Assembly (NCBI GenBank): GCA_046292385.1
Contig: JBKBRF010000012.1
Location: forward strand, 81,039 to 145,038
Length of the DNA: 64,000 nt
Direction of reading: 5' to 3'
Source: Armatimonadota bacterium
Lineage (GTDB): Bacteria; Armatimonadota; SYMT01
Of the stretch, positions 30,169 through 40,984 are shown piece by piece. The notes under the pieces were generated by a model. That model saw only the letters and a list, made by a program, of their open reading frames with translations, was not told where the DNA came from and did no database searches. The position numbers were made by a program, and so were the translations under genes. Every line of letters begins with the position of its first letter. Positions within the stretch are counted from its first letter, which is position 1.

Positions 30169-30855
30169 ATGTCAACCACGATCCTCGCACTGAAGAACGA
30201 CTACGCCGACCTCGATCCGGTGGCGGCCGCGGAGCTGAACGCGCGCGCGGATGCGCTGGAGGCGGTCTTCGCGAGCCGCCTGGTCAAGAGCGTCGCCGGA
30301 GGCGTCGAGGTCACCCTCACGGATGAGGAGGCGGTAGCGTTGGTGCTCGAGCTCTCAGGGCTCCTCACCGCCAGCATCAACGTCGTGCTTCCTCTGTGGG
30401 CCGGCCGGCGCTGGGTGATCCGGAACGACACCACCGGCGCCTTTGAAGTGACGGTCAAGACGCCCGCCGGCAGCGGGATCGTGGTGACCCAGGGCTACCG
30501 GGCCGAGGTGTTCTGCGACGGCACTGACGTGGTGCGGGCCGCGCCAGACGTGAGCAACGCCGCGGCGCTGGTGATCGGGGGCGGGACGCCGATCGCGAAG
30601 TATCTCTCCGCCACGAAGGTCTGGGATCCGCCGTCGATCGCGGACGGCGCTATCACCTCGACCACCGTGACCGTCACCGGCGCCGCGGTGGGAGACCTGG
30701 CCGTCGCCGGCCTCACCACCCTGACGGCCGGACTCGCGCTGCTCTCCGCCCACGTGACCGCCGCCGACACCGTGACCGTCGTGCTGCTCAACAAGACGGG
30801 CGGGGCGCTGGACGTGGCGAGCGGGACCCTGCGCGTCGGGGTGTGGAAGCACTAA
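30169..30855 (+). CDS. Tail fibre / receptor-binding-like protein
   Basis: WVIRNDTTGAFEVTVKT, WDPPSIADG...TVTVTGAAVGD; last tail gene. Confidence 0.7.
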   Translation: MSTTILALKNDYADLDPVAAAELNARADALEAVFASRLVKSVAGGVEVTLTDEEAVALVLELSGLLTASINVVLPLWAGRRWVIRNDTTGAFEVTVKTPAGSGIVVTQGYRAEVFCDGTDVVRAAPDVSNAAALVIGGGTPIAKYLSATKVWDPPSIADGAITSTTVTVTGAAVGDLAVAGLTTLTAGLALLSAHVTAADTVTVVLLNKTGGALDVASGTLRVGVWKH

Positions 30856-30860
30856 CCCGA

Positions 30861-30878
30861 TTATGCCACGTGGCATAA
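30861..30878. repeat. Dispersed palindrome copy 4
   Basis: TTATGCCACGTGGCATAA 5 bp after the last tail gene stop, between convergent genes. Confidence 0.97.
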
Positions 30879-30929
30879 CCGTCGCTGAACCGCTAGCGGA
30901 GAGTCCTGGTTGTACCGTGAGGGCCTGGT

Positions 30930-31718
30930 CTACGGTCGGCGTGTCGACACTGCCTTGAGATTTGGATGGTGCGAGCCGGCTGGCGAGGCGGAAGCGACCA
31001 CCGAGACGCCTTGATCTACCAGCCCCAGGCGCAACCCGCAGAGGAAGAGGTCTCGTTGACCGTCCAAGCGGAGCTTTCGCCGGATTGCAGTGCGATGCGA
31101 CTCCACCGTCCGCGGGCTCAGATAGAGTGTCTCCGCGATTCTGGCGGAAGTCCAACCCTGTAGCGCGAGCGCCATCACCTCCCGCTCCCGAGGGGATAGG
31201 CGCTGATACGCAGCGTGAAGCCACTCGCTGTCAAGTTCTGGGCGAACAGCCGGCGAAACGGCGTGTAGGGAGTCACCGCTCGCGGGCTCGTCGCCAGCCG
31301 CAGTGTCGCTGCGGATGAATCGCAGCAGCTGCGCCGATGCCACATCCATGGGAAGGCGAAGGAGCCGGGACGAGCAACGGGGGTCCGGCAGCACGGTCGC
31401 TGAAAGCGCCGGATCGAGCGCGAGAATCCGCGCGCAGGGCCGGAATTCGTGCAGTCGTCTGACGTAACTCTCTTCGGGCTCCGGCAGTAGCCGGGTGTCC
31501 ACGATAATCCCACTAGCGTTGCGCTCTCGCGCGAGTGACAGCAGAGTGCCCGCATCCTCCGCTTCCCCGGCCAGGAGAAACTCTCGCAAGAGCGAGCGCA
31601 GTCCCAAGCGCAGTAACTCCGACGCACTGGCGAGCAGCACGGATGGCAGCGCAGGTTTCGCAGGACACGGCGGTATGGCCATCGGCTCGCTTCGGGAACG
31701 GAGTTCTCCCGCTCTCAC
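30930..31718 (-). CDS. LuxR/NarL-family regulator with degenerate receiver domain (start uncertain)
   Basis: LSPREREV...IAETLYLSPRTVESHRTAIRRKL HTH; receiver acidic pocket replaced by ASAS. Confidence 0.8.
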   Translation of the reverse strand: MRAGELRSRSEPMAIPPCPAKPALPSVLLASASELLRLGLRSLLREFLLAGEAEDAGTLLSLARERNASGIIVDTRLLPEPEESYVRRLHEFRPCARILALDPALSATVLPDPRCSSRLLRLPMDVASAQLLRFIRSDTAAGDEPASGDSLHAVSPAVRPELDSEWLHAAYQRLSPREREVMALALQGWTSARIAETLYLSPRTVESHRTAIRRKLRLDGQRDLFLCGLRLGLVDQGVSVVASASPAGSHHPNLKAVSTRRP

Positions 31719-31905
31719 CTGCTAAGTGTCAGGCGTGTTAGGAAGCTATCGCCCTCACCCAGAATTACATCCTTCGATTGAGGTCAGTACGCGCCGGTAC
31801 GGATTTTTCATCGCGGCCGATAGTTCAAGCGCCCAGGAGGCACTCAAGGTACTAGAAGCACCTTACTCTGCCACTAGGGATTCACCCGACGGGCGAGGCA
31901 ACCTC

Positions 31906-32508
31906 TTGATTGGCCTCCGGCGAAAACTAGAGCGGTTTCGGGAACCTGACCCTACGCCCGCACCTCGCGAACCGCTGGGTGAAGAGGTCGCGGCACGCCT
32001 TCTGGATCTCGTCTATCGGTACGTGTCTCGGCGCGTCGTCAATCGAGAGGACGTGGCGGACCTCACGGGGGAGATCCTGCTCCACGTGACAGCCCAGTTC
32101 CCGAACTTCCGGGGTGAAGGCAGAATGGAAAGCTGGCTCTTTCGCATTGCCGAACGGAGGCTGTCACGGAGCCGGCGACGGATGCAGCGATGGGCATCCG
32201 TCGCGGTGGAGGCGCTCCTGCCGGAACACGAGGATACGGTGGCCGATCCGGCGGGCGAGGATCCGGCCGCGATAGTGCAGCGCCGAGAGCGGATCTGTCA
32301 TACCATCAGGGTGGTACAATCATTACCGCCCGACCAACGGGAAGCACTGTTGCTGATGTATGCAGAAGGTCTGTCGCAGGAGGAGATCGGCCAGGTGATG
32401 GGCCGCTCCACTGAGGCCGTCAACAGCCTGCTGCAGCGGGCGAGGAAGGCGGCTCGGAAGCTGGGTGGGAGTTACTACCTAACGGGGGAACCCGGAGGGC
32501 CTCGATGA
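31906..32508 (+). CDS. ECF sigma-70 factor (start uncertain)
   Basis: DVADLTGE, SWLFRIA, LPPDQREAL, LSQEEIG, VNSLLQRAR. Confidence 0.85.
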   Translation: MIGLRRKLERFREPDPTPAPREPLGEEVAARLLDLVYRYVSRRVVNREDVADLTGEILLHVTAQFPNFRGEGRMESWLFRIAERRLSRSRRRMQRWASVAVEALLPEHEDTVADPAGEDPAAIVQRRERICHTIRVVQSLPPDQREALLLMYAEGLSQEEIGQVMGRSTEAVNSLLQRARKAARKLGGSYYLTGEPGGPR

Positions 32509-33353
32509 AGCACGAGGAGTCTCAACCCAGCGAGCGGCCGGACCGGGGAGCCCCCGGGGACCCGTGGGAGGCAGCGTTCGGCAATGCAGTCCGCGAAGCC
32601 TTTCCGGGTCGTTCCCCAGCCCCCGAAGAGAAGGCGCGGATTCTTCAGCGCGTGAGACAACGCGCCGCGCGTCGGTCCCAGCGCCGTGCCACCTGGCTCC
32701 CTCCGCTTCGCTTCCGGCTGTCCTTCGCTGCCGTCACCGCGCTGCTACTCATCCTCGCGTTCGTGGTGCTGCAGCCACGAGAAGTAGACGCTGGCTTGCT
32801 GGATCGCGTTGTAGCAGCGATGGCACAGTTCCGCTCCGGCCACCTGGTGTTTCTGCGGCTCAACGACCAGGGCCAATGGGAGTACGAACGCCAGTTGTGG
32901 TACCGCGAAGGCTCCTGGCGGACAGAGATGGACGGGGATACCTGGATCTACACGCCCCGAGCGACCTGGCGACAGAAGCTGCCGGACCCACGCTGGGTGC
33001 GTCGTCCCGAGAAATCGAACTTCGGTCGTGACCTGAGTGGGTTAGCTCCCACCGTCCTGGGAGGCGACTTCGAGAAGTGGGGCCGGGAAACGCAAATCCG
33101 GTACCTAGAAGCTCCGGATGGTCCGCCCGGCTCCTTCCAGGTAGTCGTCGAGCCGGAAGGTGAGAAGGAGCGGATCCTGCTCGCCATCGATCAGGCCACG
33201 AGCGTCCCGCGCTACTTCGAATTCCACAGCCTGCGCGGAGGCCGGTGGCACATCACGCACCGCGTGCAGATCGAGCTCGGGCTGCCCTTGTCTCCCGCCC
33301 TATTCGCCCCGGGAGCTCCCGCTCCGGAGCAGTCCCCCGCACGCTTGGACTGA
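32505..33353 (+). CDS. Putative membrane anti-sigma factor with periplasmic LolA-like domain
   Basis: ATGA overlap with the ECF; one TM then a beta-rich domain (IDQATSVP). Confidence 0.7.
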   Translation: MKHEESQPSERPDRGAPGDPWEAAFGNAVREAFPGRSPAPEEKARILQRVRQRAARRSQRRATWLPPLRFRLSFAAVTALLLILAFVVLQPREVDAGLLDRVVAAMAQFRSGHLVFLRLNDQGQWEYERQLWYREGSWRTEMDGDTWIYTPRATWRQKLPDPRWVRRPEKSNFGRDLSGLAPTVLGGDFEKWGRETQIRYLEAPDGPPGSFQVVVEPEGEKERILLAIDQATSVPRYFEFHSLRGGRWHITHRVQIELGLPLSPALFAPGAPAPEQSPARLD

Positions 33354-33556
33354 TACCAGAAACCAGGTCCCCTACCGCTCCTGCGGATCCCAGCCGGTCT
33401 TCGCCTCTACGGTGGCCGAGAACACGCCTACGATAGGTGTGCTCTCGGCCATCGTTGCTCATGTCGGTGCCGAGCCGAGCGCCGCCAAGCTCGCACCAGC
33501 CCACTCCACTCCGCCTCCGGGTGGCCTACCTCACGGCCACCCGGAGGAGGAAACCG

Positions 33557-34132
33557 ATGGTTGTGGGTTCACCTGAGTGGCAGGTGGCACTGAGAGCTGC
33601 AAAGGATGGTTGTCGATACGGCGCCGAGCGTCTGGCGGCAGTTCTCCTGGTGTGGGCGTACCGAGAGCTTCGGAAAGGAAGCTGGCGGGAGCCTGAGGAC
33701 ATTGTGGGTGAGTTCGTGGCGAGGATGCTCCGCGAGCAGGCCCGGGATCTGCCGGATGGAGATTGTCGACGCACGGAGGCCTACCTACGACGCGCGCTAC
33801 GCAGGTTGCTCGTCGATCGCTGGCGAGAGCAGCGACGCTGGCGCGCGAATGAGTTGCTCCTCTCCGAGCTGTCGGCGGATGACGACTCGTCCTACCAACC
33901 CTGGACGATTGCCGAGGCCGATCCGCTCGACCAGGTTCTCCGCGCAGAGGAGCGTCAAACCCTCCAGCGAGCGCTGGAGCACCTGGCTGACCAGAACCGG
34001 ATGCTGATCCGCTTGACCCTCGACGGCTGGACGCCGACGGAACTTGCCGGGCGGACCCGGTTGACGCCGAACACGGTCCGGCAGCGGCTCTGGTCGATCC
34101 GCCGCCAACTCCGACGTCTGCTCCAGGAGTAG
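33557..34132 (+). CDS. Second ECF sigma-70 factor
   Basis: EPEDIV, AYLRRALRRLLVD, region 4 GWTPTELA...TVRQRL; RBS GGAGGAGG. Confidence 0.8.
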   Translation: MVVGSPEWQVALRAAKDGCRYGAERLAAVLLVWAYRELRKGSWREPEDIVGEFVARMLREQARDLPDGDCRRTEAYLRRALRRLLVDRWREQRRWRANELLLSELSADDDSSYQPWTIAEADPLDQVLRAEERQTLQRALEHLADQNRMLIRLTLDGWTPTELAGRTRLTPNTVRQRLWSIRRQLRRLLQE

Positions 34133-34272
34133 CGGCCGCGAGAGCTCGCGCCGGGGTAGCCGGAAAGGGCTCTCGGACAGAGCCTAACGCGGCCCCCTAA
34201 GGCTCCGTCTCTTCCCCCTGACGGTAGCCGCTTGGGAAACCTCCCGAGCGTTAGCTGACTGCCAGGGGGAAG

Positions 34273-35850
34273 ATGATGCAGACCGCGCGGAAGCGCAACA
34301 CGACCAGGGCCCGATGGATCGGAGTGGAAGATGCGGTCCGCGTCGCCCTCGCCGGCGTGCTCCTCACCGCCGTCGTCGGGAAGCTCCTCGACTTCGACGG
34401 CTTTGTCCCGGTGGTGAACCGCCTGGAGCTGGTGCCCGCCACCTGGAGCGCGGCCGCCGCGGCACTCCTACTGGTCCTGGAAACCGTGGCCGCCACCCTG
34501 CTGCTGACCCGCAGCGCCGCGCTGGCGGGACCTCTACTCACCTTGCTCTTAGCTGGAGGCTTCACGCAGGTCACGCTTCGATTCCTGCTCGAAGGGCGGC
34601 CGAACACCTGTGGCTGCTTCGGGCTACTCCTGCAATTACCACCGCTCGCCGTGCTCCTGCTTGATCTCACTCTGGGGCTGGGGGCCTTCTTTCTGCTGCG
34701 AAAAGGGTGGCGCGCCCGCCGTGTGGCTCTCACTGCGCAGCCGGAGATCGGGAGTTCAGCAGGAGTCCCGTCGGGAGCTCCACTGAGTTCTTTCCGCTCC
34801 GGGACTCTTTGGTGCGGCTGCTATCTCCTGGTGATGGTCGCCGGGTTGCAGGCGGGCTTTCACGCGCAGTGGCAGCATGCTGATGACGGCGAGACCCGGG
34901 AGATCAATCTCCGACTCGGCGATCGGGCGCCGCTGTTCCGTCTCCGAACGCTCGGCGGTCGAGTGATCACCCCGGCCTCTCTCGCCGGAGAACCGGCGCT
35001 CGTGGTGTTCGTCCAGGACGGCTGCACCCCCTGCGAAAGCGAGCTGCGGGAGTTGGCGACCCTCGCCTCCGAGTTGCGCGGCCACGTGCGCCCGCTGGTC
35101 GTGCTCACCGGTCGACCACTCTGGGGCAGTGCCGAAGCCGCGGCGCGCCGTTTCGCTCGCCGCCTCGCCCTTCCCTTCCCTGTGGCCTTGGATCCGGACC
35201 GCACGGCCCTAGGGCGTTACGCCGACCGCCCCGCGCGCACTCCCTTCAGTGTGCTGCTGAACTCCGCGGGCCGCGTGAGCTATGTCCAGGATGGCCGTGA
35301 GAGCGGCGAGATGAGCCTGAAGCGGGATCTCCAGGCCCTCCTCGCTGATGAGCCGTATGGGGCGCCGGTTCTCGCCTCTCGTTCTCCGCACGTTGGCCGG
35401 CCCGCACCAGACGGGGTGCTCTCCGGCCCCGCCGGACCGGTGCGGCTCTCCACGCTCTGGCAGCAAGGCCCCCTGCTACTGACCTTCCTGCTCCCCGACT
35501 GCCCGGGTTGCCGAGAGCGGGTCGCGCTGCTAGAGCGTGCCGCCGGTGCCAACCAGGGTTTGCGGTCAATCTACGTCTACCCGAGTGCCGCGGCGGCGGC
35601 CGCCGCGCGAAGGAGGCTGCGGACTCAGGCAGTTGTGGCGAGCGATCCGAGCCGGGAGGTCCACACTCGGTTCGCGGTGTGGAATGCCCCAACCTCCGTC
35701 CTAATCGAGCGCGGACGGATCCAGCTGGTCACCGGTGAGCGCGCCGGTGACCGGGAACTGCTGCGAGCTCTGCGCTCTGTGCCCTCGGCCGTGATCGGCC
35801 TTTCGACCACGGACCTCTCTGCCCGAAGGGCGAACGCGAAAGCCAGGTAA
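34273..35850 (+). CDS. MauE/DoxX membrane domain fused to two thioredoxin-like (redoxin) domains
   Basis: TM region with CGCFG; GDRAPLF...CTPC; GRPAPD...CPGC; cis-Pro motifs TP/APT. Confidence 0.85.
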   Translation: MMQTARKRNTTRARWIGVEDAVRVALAGVLLTAVVGKLLDFDGFVPVVNRLELVPATWSAAAAALLLVLETVAATLLLTRSAALAGPLLTLLLAGGFTQVTLRFLLEGRPNTCGCFGLLLQLPPLAVLLLDLTLGLGAFFLLRKGWRARRVALTAQPEIGSSAGVPSGAPLSSFRSGTLWCGCYLLVMVAGLQAGFHAQWQHADDGETREINLRLGDRAPLFRLRTLGGRVITPASLAGEPALVVFVQDGCTPCESELRELATLASELRGHVRPLVVLTGRPLWGSAEAAARRFARRLALPFPVALDPDRTALGRYADRPARTPFSVLLNSAGRVSYVQDGRESGEMSLKRDLQALLADEPYGAPVLASRSPHVGRPAPDGVLSGPAGPVRLSTLWQQGPLLLTFLLPDCPGCRERVALLERAAGANQGLRSIYVYPSAAAAAAARRRLRTQAVVASDPSREVHTRFAVWNAPTSVLIERGRIQLVTGERAGDRELLRALRSVPSAVIGLSTTDLSARRANAKAR

Positions 35851-35854
35851 CTGA

Positions 35855-36244
35855 ATGCGAAATCAATCCACTCTCCACTCCCGAGGCGAGCGCACGAGCC
35901 GTCCGTTACTGTGGCTCGTTCTCTCTCTCTTTCTCGCTGCCACCGGCCCCGGGACACTCGAGCTCGCCTGGGGGGATTCAGAAAACTACTGCCCGGGCTC
36001 TCCATGGAACTGCTATCCGCAGACCACCTGCGGAGAGCTGACGTGGTGCGAGACGACCGGCGGCGACTGGTGCAATACGACGTACGCCCACTACGCCAAG
36101 AAGAAGTACCTGATGGTGAAACGCTGCACGAATCTTTCCGGCGGAGAGCTCACCTGCACCTCTTGCGGCCCGAAGCAAGACAATGGCTGCTGTAAGGATC
36201 TGTCCGCAGAGCCGTCGTGCCCGAACGGGACACAGTGCCCGTAG
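35855..36244 (+). CDS. Secreted cysteine-rich small protein (12 Cys in predicted mature part)
   Basis: Hydrophobic signal LLWLVLSLFLAAT; 12 Cys counted after LAWG. Confidence 0.75.
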   Translation: MRNQSTLHSRGERTSRPLLWLVLSLFLAATGPGTLELAWGDSENYCPGSPWNCYPQTTCGELTWCETTGGDWCNTTYAHYAKKKYLMVKRCTNLSGGELTCTSCGPKQDNGCCKDLSAEPSCPNGTQCP

Positions 36245-36272
36245 CGGGAGACAGGCTGCACGGAGGCTTCTC

Positions 36273-36968
36273 ATGGTGTTCAAGTCGACTCTTCGTTGGA
36301 TGTGTTCTCGGGAAACCCGGAGCGCCGCCCGGTCACGGCCCGGTTTTACCCTGCTGGAGGTGCTGGTCGTGTCGGGAGTCCTCCTGATTCTGTTGGGCCT
36401 ATTGGTTCCCGTCGCCGCCAGCGCCCGCGCTCGCGCACAGGAAGGCGCATGCGCCGGGCAACTTCGACAGATCGGAAAGGCTATGCGGCTCTATCTGGAT
36501 GACCACGATGGGCTGCGGCCACCGCGGCTGACCGATCTGATCCCGAACCACTTGGCCGAGCGGCGCCTCCTGCAGTGCCCGCGAGATCCTTGGCTGGGCC
36601 GTGGCGGCTGGGCCTGGTCCGCCTGGGGACGCCTGACCACCCCACCCCAGCGGTGGCCGGCCCCTGTTTCTTACGGCTACTTCTGGAGCCCGCTCCCGCA
36701 CGACCGCCTCTGGCGCGAGGCGCAACAGGCCCCGGGGCGACCCGGCTACCTCGTCTGCGTGCTGCATGGAGAGTCGGGCGAGAGCTCTCCTGACGGGGAC
36801 GGAGAGGCGCCGTACTATCGCGGGCGCGTGCTGCGGCTCTGCTTCGACGGCAGTGTCGTCACCCGCGAGTTCCCCGGCCGGGGCTTTAACGCCTGGCGGC
36901 TGATGACCGACCAGGCAGTTCCAGCGGCGCCACGTGCGGCCGGGACCAGGAGTGAGGGGATCAGATGA
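36273..36968 (+). CDS. Prepilin-type N-terminal cleavage/methylation (pseudopilin) protein
   Basis: GFTLLEVLVV, ARARAQ..C..QLRQIG, C-terminal CFDGSV. Confidence 0.85.
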   Translation: MVFKSTLRWMCSRETRSAARSRPGFTLLEVLVVSGVLLILLGLLVPVAASARARAQEGACAGQLRQIGKAMRLYLDDHDGLRPPRLTDLIPNHLAERRLLQCPRDPWLGRGGWAWSAWGRLTTPPQRWPAPVSYGYFWSPLPHDRLWREAQQAPGRPGYLVCVLHGESGESSPDGDGEAPYYRGRVLRLCFDGSVVTREFPGRGFNAWRLMTDQAVPAAPRAAGTRSEGIR

Positions 36969-37390
36969 CGACCGTACTACGAGTCGGGATGGGCTGCCTG
37001 CTGGGAGCGCTAGTGGGGATGGTGGGATTCGTGAGTGTGTCCGTGGTGTTCTTCGCGCTCGGGGTCTACTCCCATCACCAACTCACACTCGGCGCCGGCC
37101 TGGGTCTCATCTGGGGAGCGTTGGCAGGGCCCTGGAGTGTTTGGCGACGCCGCCCGCTTGCTCGGGGCGTGCTCGGGCCGGCGCTGGTGTCTGTCGGCGT
37201 CTTCACCGGGTATCTGCTTTGGCTGGGCTCGCAGCGCAGTGTCTTTACGTCCTGGGAGCAGTTCCGCAGCGGGCTTCTCGCGGGGAGCGCGTTCGTGCTC
37301 CTTGCGAGTGGGCTATCAGCGATGGCCTGCCTCCGGATCTGGGACTTACTCCCCTCGGACCTGGCGAACTCTTGGGAACCGCGAGGCTGA
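36965..37390 (+). CDS. Four-TM membrane protein
   Basis: ATGA overlap; four hydrophobic segments. Confidence 0.65.
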   Translation: MTTVLRVGMGCLLGALVGMVGFVSVSVVFFALGVYSHHQLTLGAGLGLIWGALAGPWSVWRRRPLARGVLGPALVSVGVFTGYLLWLGSQRSVFTSWEQFRSGLLAGSAFVLLASGLSAMACLRIWDLLPSDLANSWEPRG

Positions 37391-37644
37391 TCGTGACTCG
37401 AGGCCAGTCCAATACCTGGCGATGAGATCTCGGGCGGCGGGGACTGCTCCCCCGACTGGGCGCCGGCCACCGCTGATGTGCGGGCCGTACTCGAGGTGAC
37501 GCTGTAATCGTGCGCCCGGACCGCTGAATCGTGCACCTGCCGCGCGATTCGGTGCACGATCCGCCGTACGAATGGCAGCGGCCCCGGCGGACACCCGGGG
37601 CCGCGATCGCGCCTCGTCACAAGCGCGGACAATACCCACGGCGA

Positions 37645-37662
37645 TTATGCCACGTGGCATAA
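37645..37662. repeat. Dispersed palindrome copy 5
   Basis: TTATGCCACGTGGCATAA 7 bp past the stop of the minus-strand XRE-peptidase gene, between convergent genes. Confidence 0.97.
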
Positions 37663-37669
37663 CCACCAG

Positions 37670-38764
37670 CTACAGCGCGTACCCTTGGCGAAGGAATGGC
37701 GAGACGTTCACCGGCGGCTGCTTTTCTGCCACTCTGATCTGCGGCGCAAGCTCCGCCAGATCAGAGTGGCGCATGTGCACCTGATCGGCGATCTCGCGAG
37801 GGCTCATTCCACGATCCGAAAGACGCGAGAAGATTTGCTCGTGAAGTCGGGACTCCTCCGCTGAAAAGGCATCATCCTCGGGCTCTTTGGTGCGCCAACC
37901 TCTGCGCGAGATCTCGATGCACGCGCTCTTATACTGCCACTCGGAGATGATCTCGAGATCAAAGGCTCGTCGGACGAGCGCTTGCACCGAAACGCCCCAT
38001 CGCTTCTTCAGTTCCAAGAATTGTGAGAACACCACGTGTGATGCACACTCTTGTCGGAACTGATCCGCCGGAAGCAGGAAGGCAGAGGCGAAACGATGGG
38101 CTTCCTGCTCAATCTCCCGGGACTGCAGCACTGGCGAGCTCCGATGGAGTACAAGGTGCCCCAGCTCGTGCGCTGCGTCAAATCGACCCCTGACTCCACA
38201 GGCCTTCGCGGCGTTCATCAGGACGTAAGGCTGACCGTCTCTCCAGAAGGACAGCGCATCCAGTGCGTCGCTTTGCTCCCGGGTCCAGTAAACATCCACC
38301 CCCTTCAACTCAAGAAGGTGCACCATATTCGGGATCGGTCCGAATCCTTGCTTCCAGTGACGGCGGAGGACTTCCGCCGCGAGTTCTGGCCCTTCATGGG
38401 AGAGGTCGGGTACGTCTGGAGACGGCAGGCGAAAGCAGTGGCGGAAGTGGGGGGAGAGAACGCCGCTGGCAATCTTTCCGCAAGCGAGCATTCTCTCCCT
38501 TACTGTGGCAGTGATACTTCGCGCAGATCGAAAGCTCACGGCCTTCTGGGGTATGGCATCAATCTCTGCCTTATAGAAAAAGCTCGGCAGAAACTGCAGC
38601 CGAAACACCAGGCTGTTGATCACCTCTTCCGGAGGCTCGATGGCTCCCGACTCGTAATGGGTGATCATGGGGGCAGAGACCCCAACGAGGGATGCTAGGT
38701 CCCGTTTCGTCAGGCGACGGAACTGCCTCGCAATCGTCAGTCGCGATGCAGAGAATCCGCTCAA
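37670..38764 (-). CDS. XRE HTH plus ImmA/IrrE (M78) zinc metallopeptidase
   Basis: N-terminal HTH (RLTIAR...ITHYESG), RFDAAHELGHLVLH, EQEAHRFASAFLLP; TTG start with AGGAG. Confidence 0.9.
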   Translation of the reverse strand: MSGFSASRLTIARQFRRLTKRDLASLVGVSAPMITHYESGAIEPPEEVINSLVFRLQFLPSFFYKAEIDAIPQKAVSFRSARSITATVRERMLACGKIASGVLSPHFRHCFRLPSPDVPDLSHEGPELAAEVLRRHWKQGFGPIPNMVHLLELKGVDVYWTREQSDALDALSFWRDGQPYVLMNAAKACGVRGRFDAAHELGHLVLHRSSPVLQSREIEQEAHRFASAFLLPADQFRQECASHVVFSQFLELKKRWGVSVQALVRRAFDLEIISEWQYKSACIEISRRGWRTKEPEDDAFSAEESRLHEQIFSRLSDRGMSPREIADQVHMRHSDLAELAPQIRVAEKQPPVNVSPFLRQGYAL

Positions 38765-38779
38765 GTGAAACTCCTGGTT

Positions 38780-39424
38780 CTATTGAAGCCCCGGACCATC
38801 CTCGATAGAAGGTTCCGATGCAACTCCCTGGGGAAGGTTGTTCCCAATAGTGGGCGAGGGAAGTAACGATCCGGTGTAGATTGTTTCGATGTCTTGGGCA
38901 ATCATAGCTGTGCCGTCCTTCTGGATCTCCTCCGGCACTACCAGATGAAGGGACAGTTGCTCCGCATCGTTCCGATCAGCGATCGCCCAAACCGTAAGTG
39001 GCCCTAATGAAGCCCGCTCTTCCGGAGTTTTGAAAAGTGAGAGCTGGCCAATGAGGCGCAGGTTCTTACGAACCAAGCCCTGCGAGACCGCACCCTTCTT
39101 GTTCATCGTGACTACGTTGCCGATGCGCTTTCCGTGGGCAAAGACGATTTGAACGGGGTTTGGGCCTGGGGTAGTTATCCGAGGCTGACCCTTAATCTCT
39201 TTGTAGCTGCAGCCATAACTAACGAGATGAAGCGCAGCCAAGTGCACCATCTCCGCATACGCCTGCGTGCCACGGTAGTTCGACGGGTGGTAGGTCTCGC
39301 GCTCTTCGAGCGCTGTCGTCTCACCGACGATCATGGCATCGCGAAGCATCGACACAATCGGCTCCGCGAGGACTACAGCTAAAGGACGATCCGGTTCCGG
39401 GCAGGGTTTGATGATACTCTTCAT
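38780..39424 (-). CDS. Hypothetical protein, putative toxin partner of the XRE-peptidase
   Basis: RBS GGAGG; co-oriented 15 bp upstream; AT-richer. Confidence 0.65.
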   Translation of the reverse strand: MKSIIKPCPEPDRPLAVVLAEPIVSMLRDAMIVGETTALEERETYHPSNYRGTQAYAEMVHLAALHLVSYGCSYKEIKGQPRITTPGPNPVQIVFAHGKRIGNVVTMNKKGAVSQGLVRKNLRLIGQLSLFKTPEERASLGPLTVWAIADRNDAEQLSLHLVVPEEIQKDGTAMIAQDIETIYTGSLLPSPTIGNNLPQGVASEPSIEDGPGLQ

Positions 39425-40913: not shown

Positions 40914-40965
40914 CTCAAAAACCGATTCTCGAAAGAGAGTGCGGGTTCGATCCCCGCCTTCGGCA
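40914..40965 (+). tRNA. 3' fragment of tRNA-Leu(CAA), prophage attR core (not a complete tRNA)
   Basis: Anticodon loop CTCAAAA, variable arm TCTC-GAAA-GAGA, T arm GCGGG-TTCGATC-CCCGC, acceptor strand CTTCGGC-A; no pairing 5' anticodon stem or D arm. Confidence 0.88.
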
Positions 40966-40984
40966 AGCACAACTTGTAGTCCCC

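Follow-up and report, generated by a model that had tools for sequence, protein, structure and literature searches.

What would a phage gain from a membrane oxidoreductase, a cysteine (Cys)-rich secreted protein and a pilin-like protein, all encoded side by side? The question is raised by a cassette at positions 34273-37390 of the stretch of Armatimonadota DNA analyzed here, which is 64,000 nucleotides (nt) long and is referred to as the window; coordinates are those of the window unless prefixed with C12, which denotes the whole contig. The cassette consists of four co-directional, tightly packed open reading frames (ORFs) that encode a fusion of a MauE domain to two thioredoxin (Trx) domains, a small exported protein with 12 Cys (hereafter the peptide), a type IV pilin-like protein and a protein with four transmembrane (TM) segments. 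The reading we favor, at a probability of roughly 0.55, is that a pilus-associated accessory protein receives its disulfides from a DsbB-like oxidase, and that the system is carried here as phage cargo. The four genes are as follows:

34273..35850, + strand: MauE-Trx-Trx membrane oxidoreductase, 525 amino acids (aa) (Pfam MauE, AhpC-TSA, Redoxin)
35855..36244, + strand: 12-Cys protein with a Sec signal, 129 aa (hydropathy, Cys pattern, conserved small family)
36273..36968, + strand: type IV pilin-like protein, ORF open from 36183 (N_methyl/TIGR02532, G|FTLLE)
36965..37390, + strand: small 4-TM membrane protein, 141 aa (hydropathy; its start overlaps the pilin stop in ATGA)

The fusion and peptide genes are separated by 4 nt and the peptide and pilin genes by 28 nt, while the pilin and 4-TM genes overlap by 4 nt. 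All four are single-copy in the host genome (7.04 Mb, 98.45% complete). An earlier note on this DNA, made from the sequence alone, had described these ORFs, their motifs, the 12 Cys, the pilin and the 4-TM protein, and every item of that description proved correct. The order of the genes reflects more than chance because it recurs in other Armatimonadota genomes, as detailed below.

Residues 21-140 of the fusion match the Pfam MauE family (PF07291) at 63.2 bits, where the cut-off is 27 bits, and the AhpC-TSA (63.4 bits) and Redoxin (60.7 bits) families each match in two stretches. There are two Trx domains, each with a CxxC motif (CTPC at 251-254 and CPGC at 410-413) and with the conserved cis-Pro position present. 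The eight Cys of the protein include C113-G-C115, C251-T-P-C254 and C410-P-G-C413, and C113, C115, C251, C254 and P324 are invariant across eight aligned fusions. Five hydrophobic segments were found, with the CGC motif between the third and the fourth (76-94 and 124-142). The protein is predicted to be oriented N-in because its positively charged N-terminus and the 143-177 loop fit that topology; given a fifth helix, both Trx domains would lie on the periplasmic side. A word-based search for relatives of similar length returned nothing beyond the fusion itself, and a six-frame search of 61 related genomes recovered full-length homologues in three other genomes at 28-31% identity.

The likely activity of the first domain is indicated by a preprint whose available text assigns MauE a general, DsbB-like oxidase role that relies on a CXC active site (10.64898/2026.03.05.709764). 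According to the same text, DsbB of E. coli can be replaced by stand-alone MauE proteins of two phyla, function depends on the CXC between TM3 and TM4, thioredoxin-fold fusions account for 8.2% of InterPro MauE entries, and the distribution of MauE is unlike that of the other mau genes (10.64898/2026.03.05.709764). The CXC motif of the window fusion and its placement agree with the active site and topology reported there for stand-alone MauE. The earlier proposal that the cassette was repurposed from a methylamine dehydrogenase module therefore probably has the direction wrong, since MauE appears from that text to be a general oxidase (10.64898/2026.03.05.709764). In the host genome, DsbB was not found and there is no second MauE.

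The presumed client of this oxidase has a single N-terminal hydrophobic segment (residues 17-35), carries all of its 12 Cys past residue 45, and has a mature form of about 85-90 aa. Its sequence contains no RR motif, in agreement with the earlier statement that it lacks a twin-arginine signal, and Pfam and NCBIfam gave zero matches for it. A full HMMER search of 1.84 billion representative proteins returned 21 matches at E<=1e-3, one of them a truncated form. Two further members of that list were repeat proteins whose similarity arose from composition; these were judged spurious and discarded. Aligning 18 sequences showed nine Cys to be invariant and another two almost so, together with W64 and K84, and more distant proteins encoded next to fusions elsewhere align on the same C-terminal Cys framework. 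With about 20 relatives and nearly invariant Cys, the ORF is conserved, and the concern that it might not be can be set aside. The peptide is probably a small secreted protein with six disulfides.

Its predicted fold is confident and without a known counterpart in the searches made. The AF2 model has a mean predicted local distance difference test (pLDDT) score of 84, rising to 87-97 in blocks of the mature part, and describes an all-beta protein of six strands over about 85 residues. Foldseek against the PDB gave zero rows at E<=0.001, the top row of a wide VIA search reached only Z 3.3 (root-mean-square deviation, rmsd, 4.6 over 64 aligned residues), a PDB sequence profile search gave just two chance-level rows with no dehydrogenase chain, and the ESM Atlas held no usable match. 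The suggestion that the protein is defensin- or knottin-like found no support: the confident model is a six-stranded beta protein without a PDB match, and its best VIA row is the one just given. No dehydrogenase light chain was present among the Foldseek and VIA rows either, a result that does not in itself exclude that fold.

Evidence for a functional connection among the cassette genes comes from their linkage in relatives. Around the fusion homologues, the order fusion, signal-peptide protein with 10-15 Cys, pilin-like gene is repeated. A profile built from 24 peptides was run over 401 genomes sampled across the Armatimonadota, with the best 3 to 11 candidates per genome scored in such searches, and it matched in 12 of the 401 genomes, four of which had supplied sequences to the profile. 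At all nine newly found loci, an ORF matching the pilin profile lies directly after the peptide gene on the same strand; four of these nine matches are weaker with a head-only profile. Overall, a pilin lies beside the peptide at 15 of 16 peptide loci. The fusion was followed in the same way, scoring the best 3 candidates in each of the 401 genomes. Eleven MauE-Trx fusions spanning both parts were found, one of them from the six-frame search, and ten were examined: seven directly precede a peptide of the family, one precedes a 4-TM-pilin fusion and two precede neither. The earlier note had proposed comparing the neighbors of such fusions, and the comparison gave a Cys-rich secreted ORF at 7/10 fusions versus a peptide match at 0/20 stand-alone MauE loci, two of which have just a weak generic pilin-like ORF.

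Several features of the relatives' loci deserve separate mention. One cassette (L039:6612-6994, - strand) has its Cys-rich gene split over two overlapping frames next to an intact pilin and 4-TM gene and no adjacent oxidase; the split probably reflects a frameshift that made the gene a pseudogene, or else a mistake of assembly, and an intact close match to the protein exists (P0010). Seven copies of the cassette (L016, L017, L040, L042, L044, L045, L047) lie within a few hundred bases of contig ends, perhaps as a result of paralogous cassettes breaking the assemblies of metagenome-assembled genomes (MAGs). The Cys-rich ORFs of L078 and L088 were recognized by eye, from the C-terminal Cys framework, and not by profile.

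How secure is the identification of the third gene as a pilin? Translation probably begins at the ATG at 36273, which has GGAGG ahead of it; some 24 leader residues then precede G|FTLLE, with Glu5 in place. N_methyl (22.2 bits; cut-off 21.2) and TIGR02532 (20.6 bits; cut-off 16.3) both match. The AF2 model (mean pLDDT 88) has a helix at 27-77 followed by strands, and 21 of its 22 best VIA rows are type IV pilins or pseudopilins, with the top row at a modest Z of 6.5 (rmsd 3.2, 117 residues aligned); Foldseek returned zero rows at E<=0.001. The head defines a small, distinct family of 13 further proteins at 48-58% identity among 5.8 billion clusters, in which C60 and C102 are nearly invariant and HG and LRL-x-x-DGSV motifs are conserved. 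The protein-collection entry for the gene (P0023) is only 161 aa long. That call would start past the prepilin signal and the helix and, by starting downstream, would disguise the gene's identity as a pilin. In the host, a single prepilin peptidase (peptidase A24) gene was found along with 15 T2SSE matches. The host genome (G000) also has 48 further pilin-like ORFs that match just the first 55-87 positions of the pilin-head profile, which together with the T2SSE matches amounts to a very large type IV filament repertoire.

The fourth protein has three strong hydrophobic segments and one weaker one, and the ESM Atlas placed it solely in unnamed clusters at 0.89. A multi-TM gene follows the pilin by profile in the window, L017, L039, L042, L043, L053 and L078, and by hydropathy alone in L015 and L019. 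In two further cassettes, L018 (8119-9285) and L020 (7146-8198), the multi-TM domain is instead fused ahead of the prepilin signal, and because of these fusions the 4-TM protein is best tied to the pilin rather than to the peptide. The immunity or receptor role proposed for it in the earlier note found no support. Such a fusion is topologically consistent, as an even number of helices would be followed by a cytoplasmic cleavage site. The fused forms would be prepilins with a very long membrane-spanning leader released by prepilin peptidase.

Structure modeling was used for the peptide and pilin together. Complexes of the pilin head (55-231) with the mature peptide (41-129) scored 0.85, 0.71 and 0.00 in three runs (median 0.71), with partner pLDDT of at least 75 and agreement between runs in at least 2% of contacts, and the best of three controls scored 0.33. 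The mark applied is reached by 116/157 solved complexes and 2/215 mismatched pairs, counts that apply only roughly here, where the alignments of the two partners were unpaired. The modeled interface involves pilin loops 118-124, 137-146, 170-176 and 203-209 and peptide residues 46-61, 85-98 and 105-108, regions that seem to include parts varying between cassettes. We take the model as support for binding of the peptide to the pilin head and not as a demonstration of it. Taken together with the conserved adjacency, the model, which passed its controls, strongly supports the link between peptide and pilin that had been suggested at the outset. Peptide and pilin identities are also correlated across 11 cassettes in a Mantel test (r 0.85, reached by 1 of 5000 permutations). 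This co-divergence was not counted as evidence for binding, being driven by three near-identical cassettes and by co-inheritance.

Is the cassette really phage cargo? An intact tRNA-Leu(CAA) gene is present at C12:62162-62245 by a whole-contig scan, and a perfect 55-bp direct repeat of its 3' part occurs at C12:62194-62248 and again at window 40914-40968. For the window itself, ARAGORN found 0 tRNAs and Rfam, over the whole window, 0 matches. A 402-aa integrase-like ORF, named by eye from its sequence and position, adjoins the left repeat. Between the repeats lie genes for a phage metallopeptidase, DUF2280, terminase, a portal with a Mu F domain, capsid, tail tube, tape measure, tail completion protein and tail fiber. 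These borders and structural genes bear out the description of the cassette as prophage-borne. The prophage is about 59.8 kb long, and the cassette lies past the tail fiber gene, 3.5 kb from attR. It forms part of a larger block, 30859-37664, that is bracketed by two copies of a palindrome and contains a LuxR-type regulator, two extracytoplasmic function (ECF) sigma factors and a putative anti-sigma factor in addition to the cassette. The features of this region outside the cassette are:

30859..30880, no strand: 22-bp palindrome at the left edge of the cargo block, 1 of 7 genome copies
30930..31718, - strand: LuxR/GerE-type regulator in the cargo block (Pfam GerE 1e-14)
31726..32508, + strand: ECF-type sigma factor (Pfam Sigma70_r2, r4_2; TIGR02937 1.3e-22)
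32505..33353, + strand: putative single-pass anti-sigma factor, assigned by inference (TM 72-90; weak NCBIfam anti-sigma match, E 0.0055)
33437..34132, + strand: second ECF-type sigma factor, 140 nt upstream of the cassette (TIGR02937 2.1e-16)
37643..37664, no strand: 22-bp palindrome at the right edge of the cargo block (genome copy search)
40914..40968, + strand: attR, 55-bp copy of the tRNA-Leu(CAA) 3' part (repeat search of the contig)

The start of the putative anti-sigma gene overlaps the preceding sigma gene by 4 nt, and ECF sigma genes adjoin the cassettes in L021 and L046 too. Expression of the cassette is probably controlled by the ECF sigma and anti-sigma genes next to it. A promoter and terminator scan of 30500-38000 gave nothing exceeding shuffled sequence, and no convincing ECF-type promoter was seen by eye in 34133-34272. 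Listed sequencing runs that contain this sequence come to a single DNA run, perhaps of the source sample, and include no RNA run.

The palindrome, GGTTATGCCACGTGGCATAACC, occurs in seven copies with <=2 mismatches in the genome, all of them inside the prophage (window 1005, 8231, 16233, 30859 and 37643; C12:64126 and C12:74372). The copies are perfect or near-perfect with a CACGTG core, are intergenic at operon ends and lack a trailing T-run. They are probably operators for a phage regulator or phage-specific terminators. Midway along the element is another integrase-like ORF (2278-2952, + strand; PHROG integrase 1e-35), distinct from the one on the attL side; it could represent an additional recombinase or be left over from a composite element. 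Just beyond the right palindrome, 37670-38764 (- strand) encodes a protein with helix-turn-helix (HTH) and M78-peptidase domains that PADLOC matches to RmrA at 5e-110 and PHROG calls a transcriptional regulator, and 38780-39424 (- strand) matches PADLOC RmrT at 8e-10. The pair, 37670-39424, looks from these profiles like a Rosmer-like anti-phage defense pair beside the cassette.

In relatives, the flanks of the cassette are chromosomal, with genes for glycoside hydrolases, sulfatases, MgtE, CTP synthase, seryl-tRNA synthetase, GroEL, RuvA and HisG, and a scan of 65 flanking proteins turned up no phage structural genes. On the simplest interpretation, a phage acquired a host-type cassette. A pattern for the closest peptides had no match in genome, viral or metagenome contig collections, and a pilin-head pattern had none in viral contigs; both patterns are strict, which makes these blanks weak evidence. 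The pilin-head pattern did match one 1151-bp metagenome contig and five loci on Fimbriimonadaceae MAG records. Five of the chromosomal cassettes (L015, L016, L017, L020, L046) adjoin glycoside hydrolase, carbohydrate-binding or sulfatase genes; the genomes may simply be rich in such genes.

If these observations are assembled, the favored explanation would run as follows. The MauE domain would act through its CXC as a quinone-linked, DsbB-like membrane oxidase and would reoxidize the two fused periplasmic Trx-fold domains. These would introduce, and probably shuffle, up to six disulfides in the Sec-exported 12-Cys protein, presumably as their specific client, and would perhaps also oxidize the conserved Cys pair of the pilin head. 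The folded Cys-rich protein would then bind the head of its cognate pilin-like protein, as the complex model suggests. The host prepilin peptidase would cut the pilin at G|F and one host type IV filament machine would handle it, so that a pilus or pseudopilus would either display the Cys-rich protein or serve for its release. The 4-TM protein may work with the prepilin in the membrane, and the neighboring sigma and anti-sigma genes would probably control expression. As cargo of a temperate phage, the cassette would give the lysogen an envelope function that it otherwise lacks, presumably to the benefit of the phage.

Three alternatives have to be weighed against this explanation. The one that survives best, which we still regard as unlikely, is that the peptide is a bacteriocin or toxin, that is, a disulfide-stabilized antimicrobial against which the 4-TM protein confers immunity, the pilin contributing no more than a pseudopilus piston for export. 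Immunity proteins often take the form of small multi-TM proteins, the peptide is small, secreted and disulfide-rich, and the cassette is located in a prophage cargo arm beside a defense system. The peptides of paralogous cassettes in one genome are also only 14-29% identical versus 25-40% for the pilins, so that peptides diverge more than pilins. A laterosporulin row appeared as well, at Z 3.0 (rmsd 2.8, 49 residues aligned), and was not above noise. However, in two cassettes the 4-TM domain is fused to the prepilin and not to the peptide, and the complex model puts the peptide on the pilin head and outscores its controls, which fail. In addition, the cassette has no dedicated exporter, protease or relay, and PADLOC, PHROG and Pfam give nothing for either the peptide or the 4-TM protein.

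Slightly lower in our estimation is the idea that the fusion is a general or pilin-directed oxidase, with the Cys-rich protein an independent neighbor and no peptide-pilin complex. DsbA-type proteins serve some type IV pilins, and the two nearly invariant Cys of the head, C60 and C102, would offer a substrate of this kind. The fusion of L020 directly precedes a 4-TM-pilin gene without a peptide, and some cassettes lack any oxidase. On the other hand, two Trx domains exceed the need of one disulfide, a 10- to 15-Cys protein comes directly after 7 of the 10 examined fusions, the 48 other pilin-like ORFs of the host have no such partner, and the complex model passed its controls. Finally, it is very improbable that the Cys-rich protein is a metal-binding or redox-active protein that is kept reduced by ResA/TlpA-like domains instead of being knotted by disulfides: its 12 strongly conserved Cys and the best NCBIfam rows of the Trx domains (ResA and StoA, both reductases, far below cut-offs) would fit, but Pfam and NCBIfam gave no metal-binding family, the confident all-beta model fits a disulfide-stabilized fold, and the CXC type of MauE complements DsbB, an oxidase, according to the available text of the preprint (10.64898/2026.03.05.709764). 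An oxidase that serves a pilus-associated accessory protein accounts for the fusions, the adjacency counts and the complex model better than any of the three alternatives.

A number of observations nevertheless weigh against the oxidase and accessory-protein explanation. The fold of the peptide offers no functional clue. One of the three complex runs scored 0, contact agreement was low and the alignments were unpaired. The linkage has exceptions on both sides, with a peptide lacking a pilin in L021 and pilins of the family lacking a peptide in L020, L048 and L052. Two fusions (G004:C700 and G088:C118) have no Cys-rich or pilin neighbor in the available sequence, the cassettes of L039, L041 and L045 have no adjacent MauE or Trx gene, and L043, L078 and L088 have a Trx or Trx-Trx protein without MauE. 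A Redoxin protein is encoded downstream of the cassette in L046. The host genome encodes one VKOR homologue that could oxidize exported proteins. Lastly, the top NCBIfam models for the Trx domains are reductases of the ResA/StoA/TlpA type, far under their cut-offs, and judged by sequence electrons may flow in either direction. The oxidase is an optional part of the cassette. What stands of the dedicated folding machine proposed in the earlier note is that the oxidoreductase is specifically linked to the Cys-rich protein; its being obligatory does not, given cassettes with Trx alone or with no oxidoreductase.

What might such a system mean for the host and the phage? Given the location of the cassette in the cargo arm beside the Rosmer-like pair, superinfection exclusion or surface conversion deserves consideration as its role. 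A bolder and rather doubtful extension is that the phage captured a pilus accessory cassette with its own oxidase and sigma factors for lysogenic conversion, and that the pilin-bound protein caps or remodels type IV filaments. If it were true, the remodeled filaments of the lysogen could block competing pilus-dependent phages or change adhesion, and the diverged cassettes within single genomes would be polymorphic matched pilin and tip pairs, an undescribed surface-specificity system. MauE was recognized as a DsbB-like oxidase only in recent work (10.64898/2026.03.05.709764). The cassette offers a compact natural test case for whether MauE-thioredoxin fusions are one-client folding machines, and it brings to light a new secreted family, probably with six disulfides, that has no known fold and a predicted pilin partner. 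It also gives a starting point for explaining the expansion of pilin-like proteins seen in the Armatimonadota and their neighbors, and points to a phage able to move such an envelope cassette between hosts.

How does the cassette compare with known systems? In its order of a membrane MauE, a CxxC Trx-fold protein and a small exported 12-Cys protein, it resembles mauE-mauD-mauA, and its first domain belongs to the MauE family by score. It differs in that the peptide has no detectable homology to MauA and no Tat-type signal, the MauE and two MauD-like domains are fused, and the cassette continues with pilin and 4-TM genes instead of dehydrogenase genes. The possibility that the peptide is a true MauA homologue had been raised; none was detectable with Pfam, with the PDB profile or in a genome-wide search with PF02975, which gave nothing at threshold and a single sub-threshold match on another contig. 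MauB, already reported as not visible near the cassette, is likewise missing genome-wide (PF06433, 0 matches at E<=0.1). The fusion shares with the MauE-Trx fusions of the preprint a CXC in the periplasmic TM3-TM4 loop and a fused thioredoxin fold (10.64898/2026.03.05.709764). The available text of that work treats MauE as a generalist, whereas the fused form studied here goes with a single client family and is phage-borne, and that text names neither Armatimonadota nor phages (10.64898/2026.03.05.709764).

The pilin recalls the DUF1559/H-X9-DG pseudopilins of the Planctomycetota, Verrucomicrobiota and Armatimonadota, as its prepilin signal and the first 55-87 head positions are common to the 48 host ORFs and a homologue at 58% identity (P0024) has a precomputed PF07596 match. 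The window pilin itself has no PF07596, TIGR04294 or other head-domain row, and its head family is distinct and small. A functional parallel may exist with CofJ-CofB of enterotoxigenic E. coli (ETEC) and TcpF-TcpB of Vibrio cholerae, in which secreted proteins dock on type IVb pilins. The cassette shares with them the placement of a gene for a small secreted protein, not itself a pilin, next to a pilin gene, and the head of that pilin is the predicted binding site. No sequence or fold relation to the cassette peptide was found, the cassette lacks pilus assembly genes of its own, and its secreted partner is probably disulfide-knotted and brings its own oxidase. A literature search found no description of a cassette composed of such a fusion, a Cys-rich protein, a pilin and a 4-TM protein. 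New here are the conserved partnership with a pilin and a 4-TM protein, the peptide family and its fold, and the carriage of the whole by a phage.

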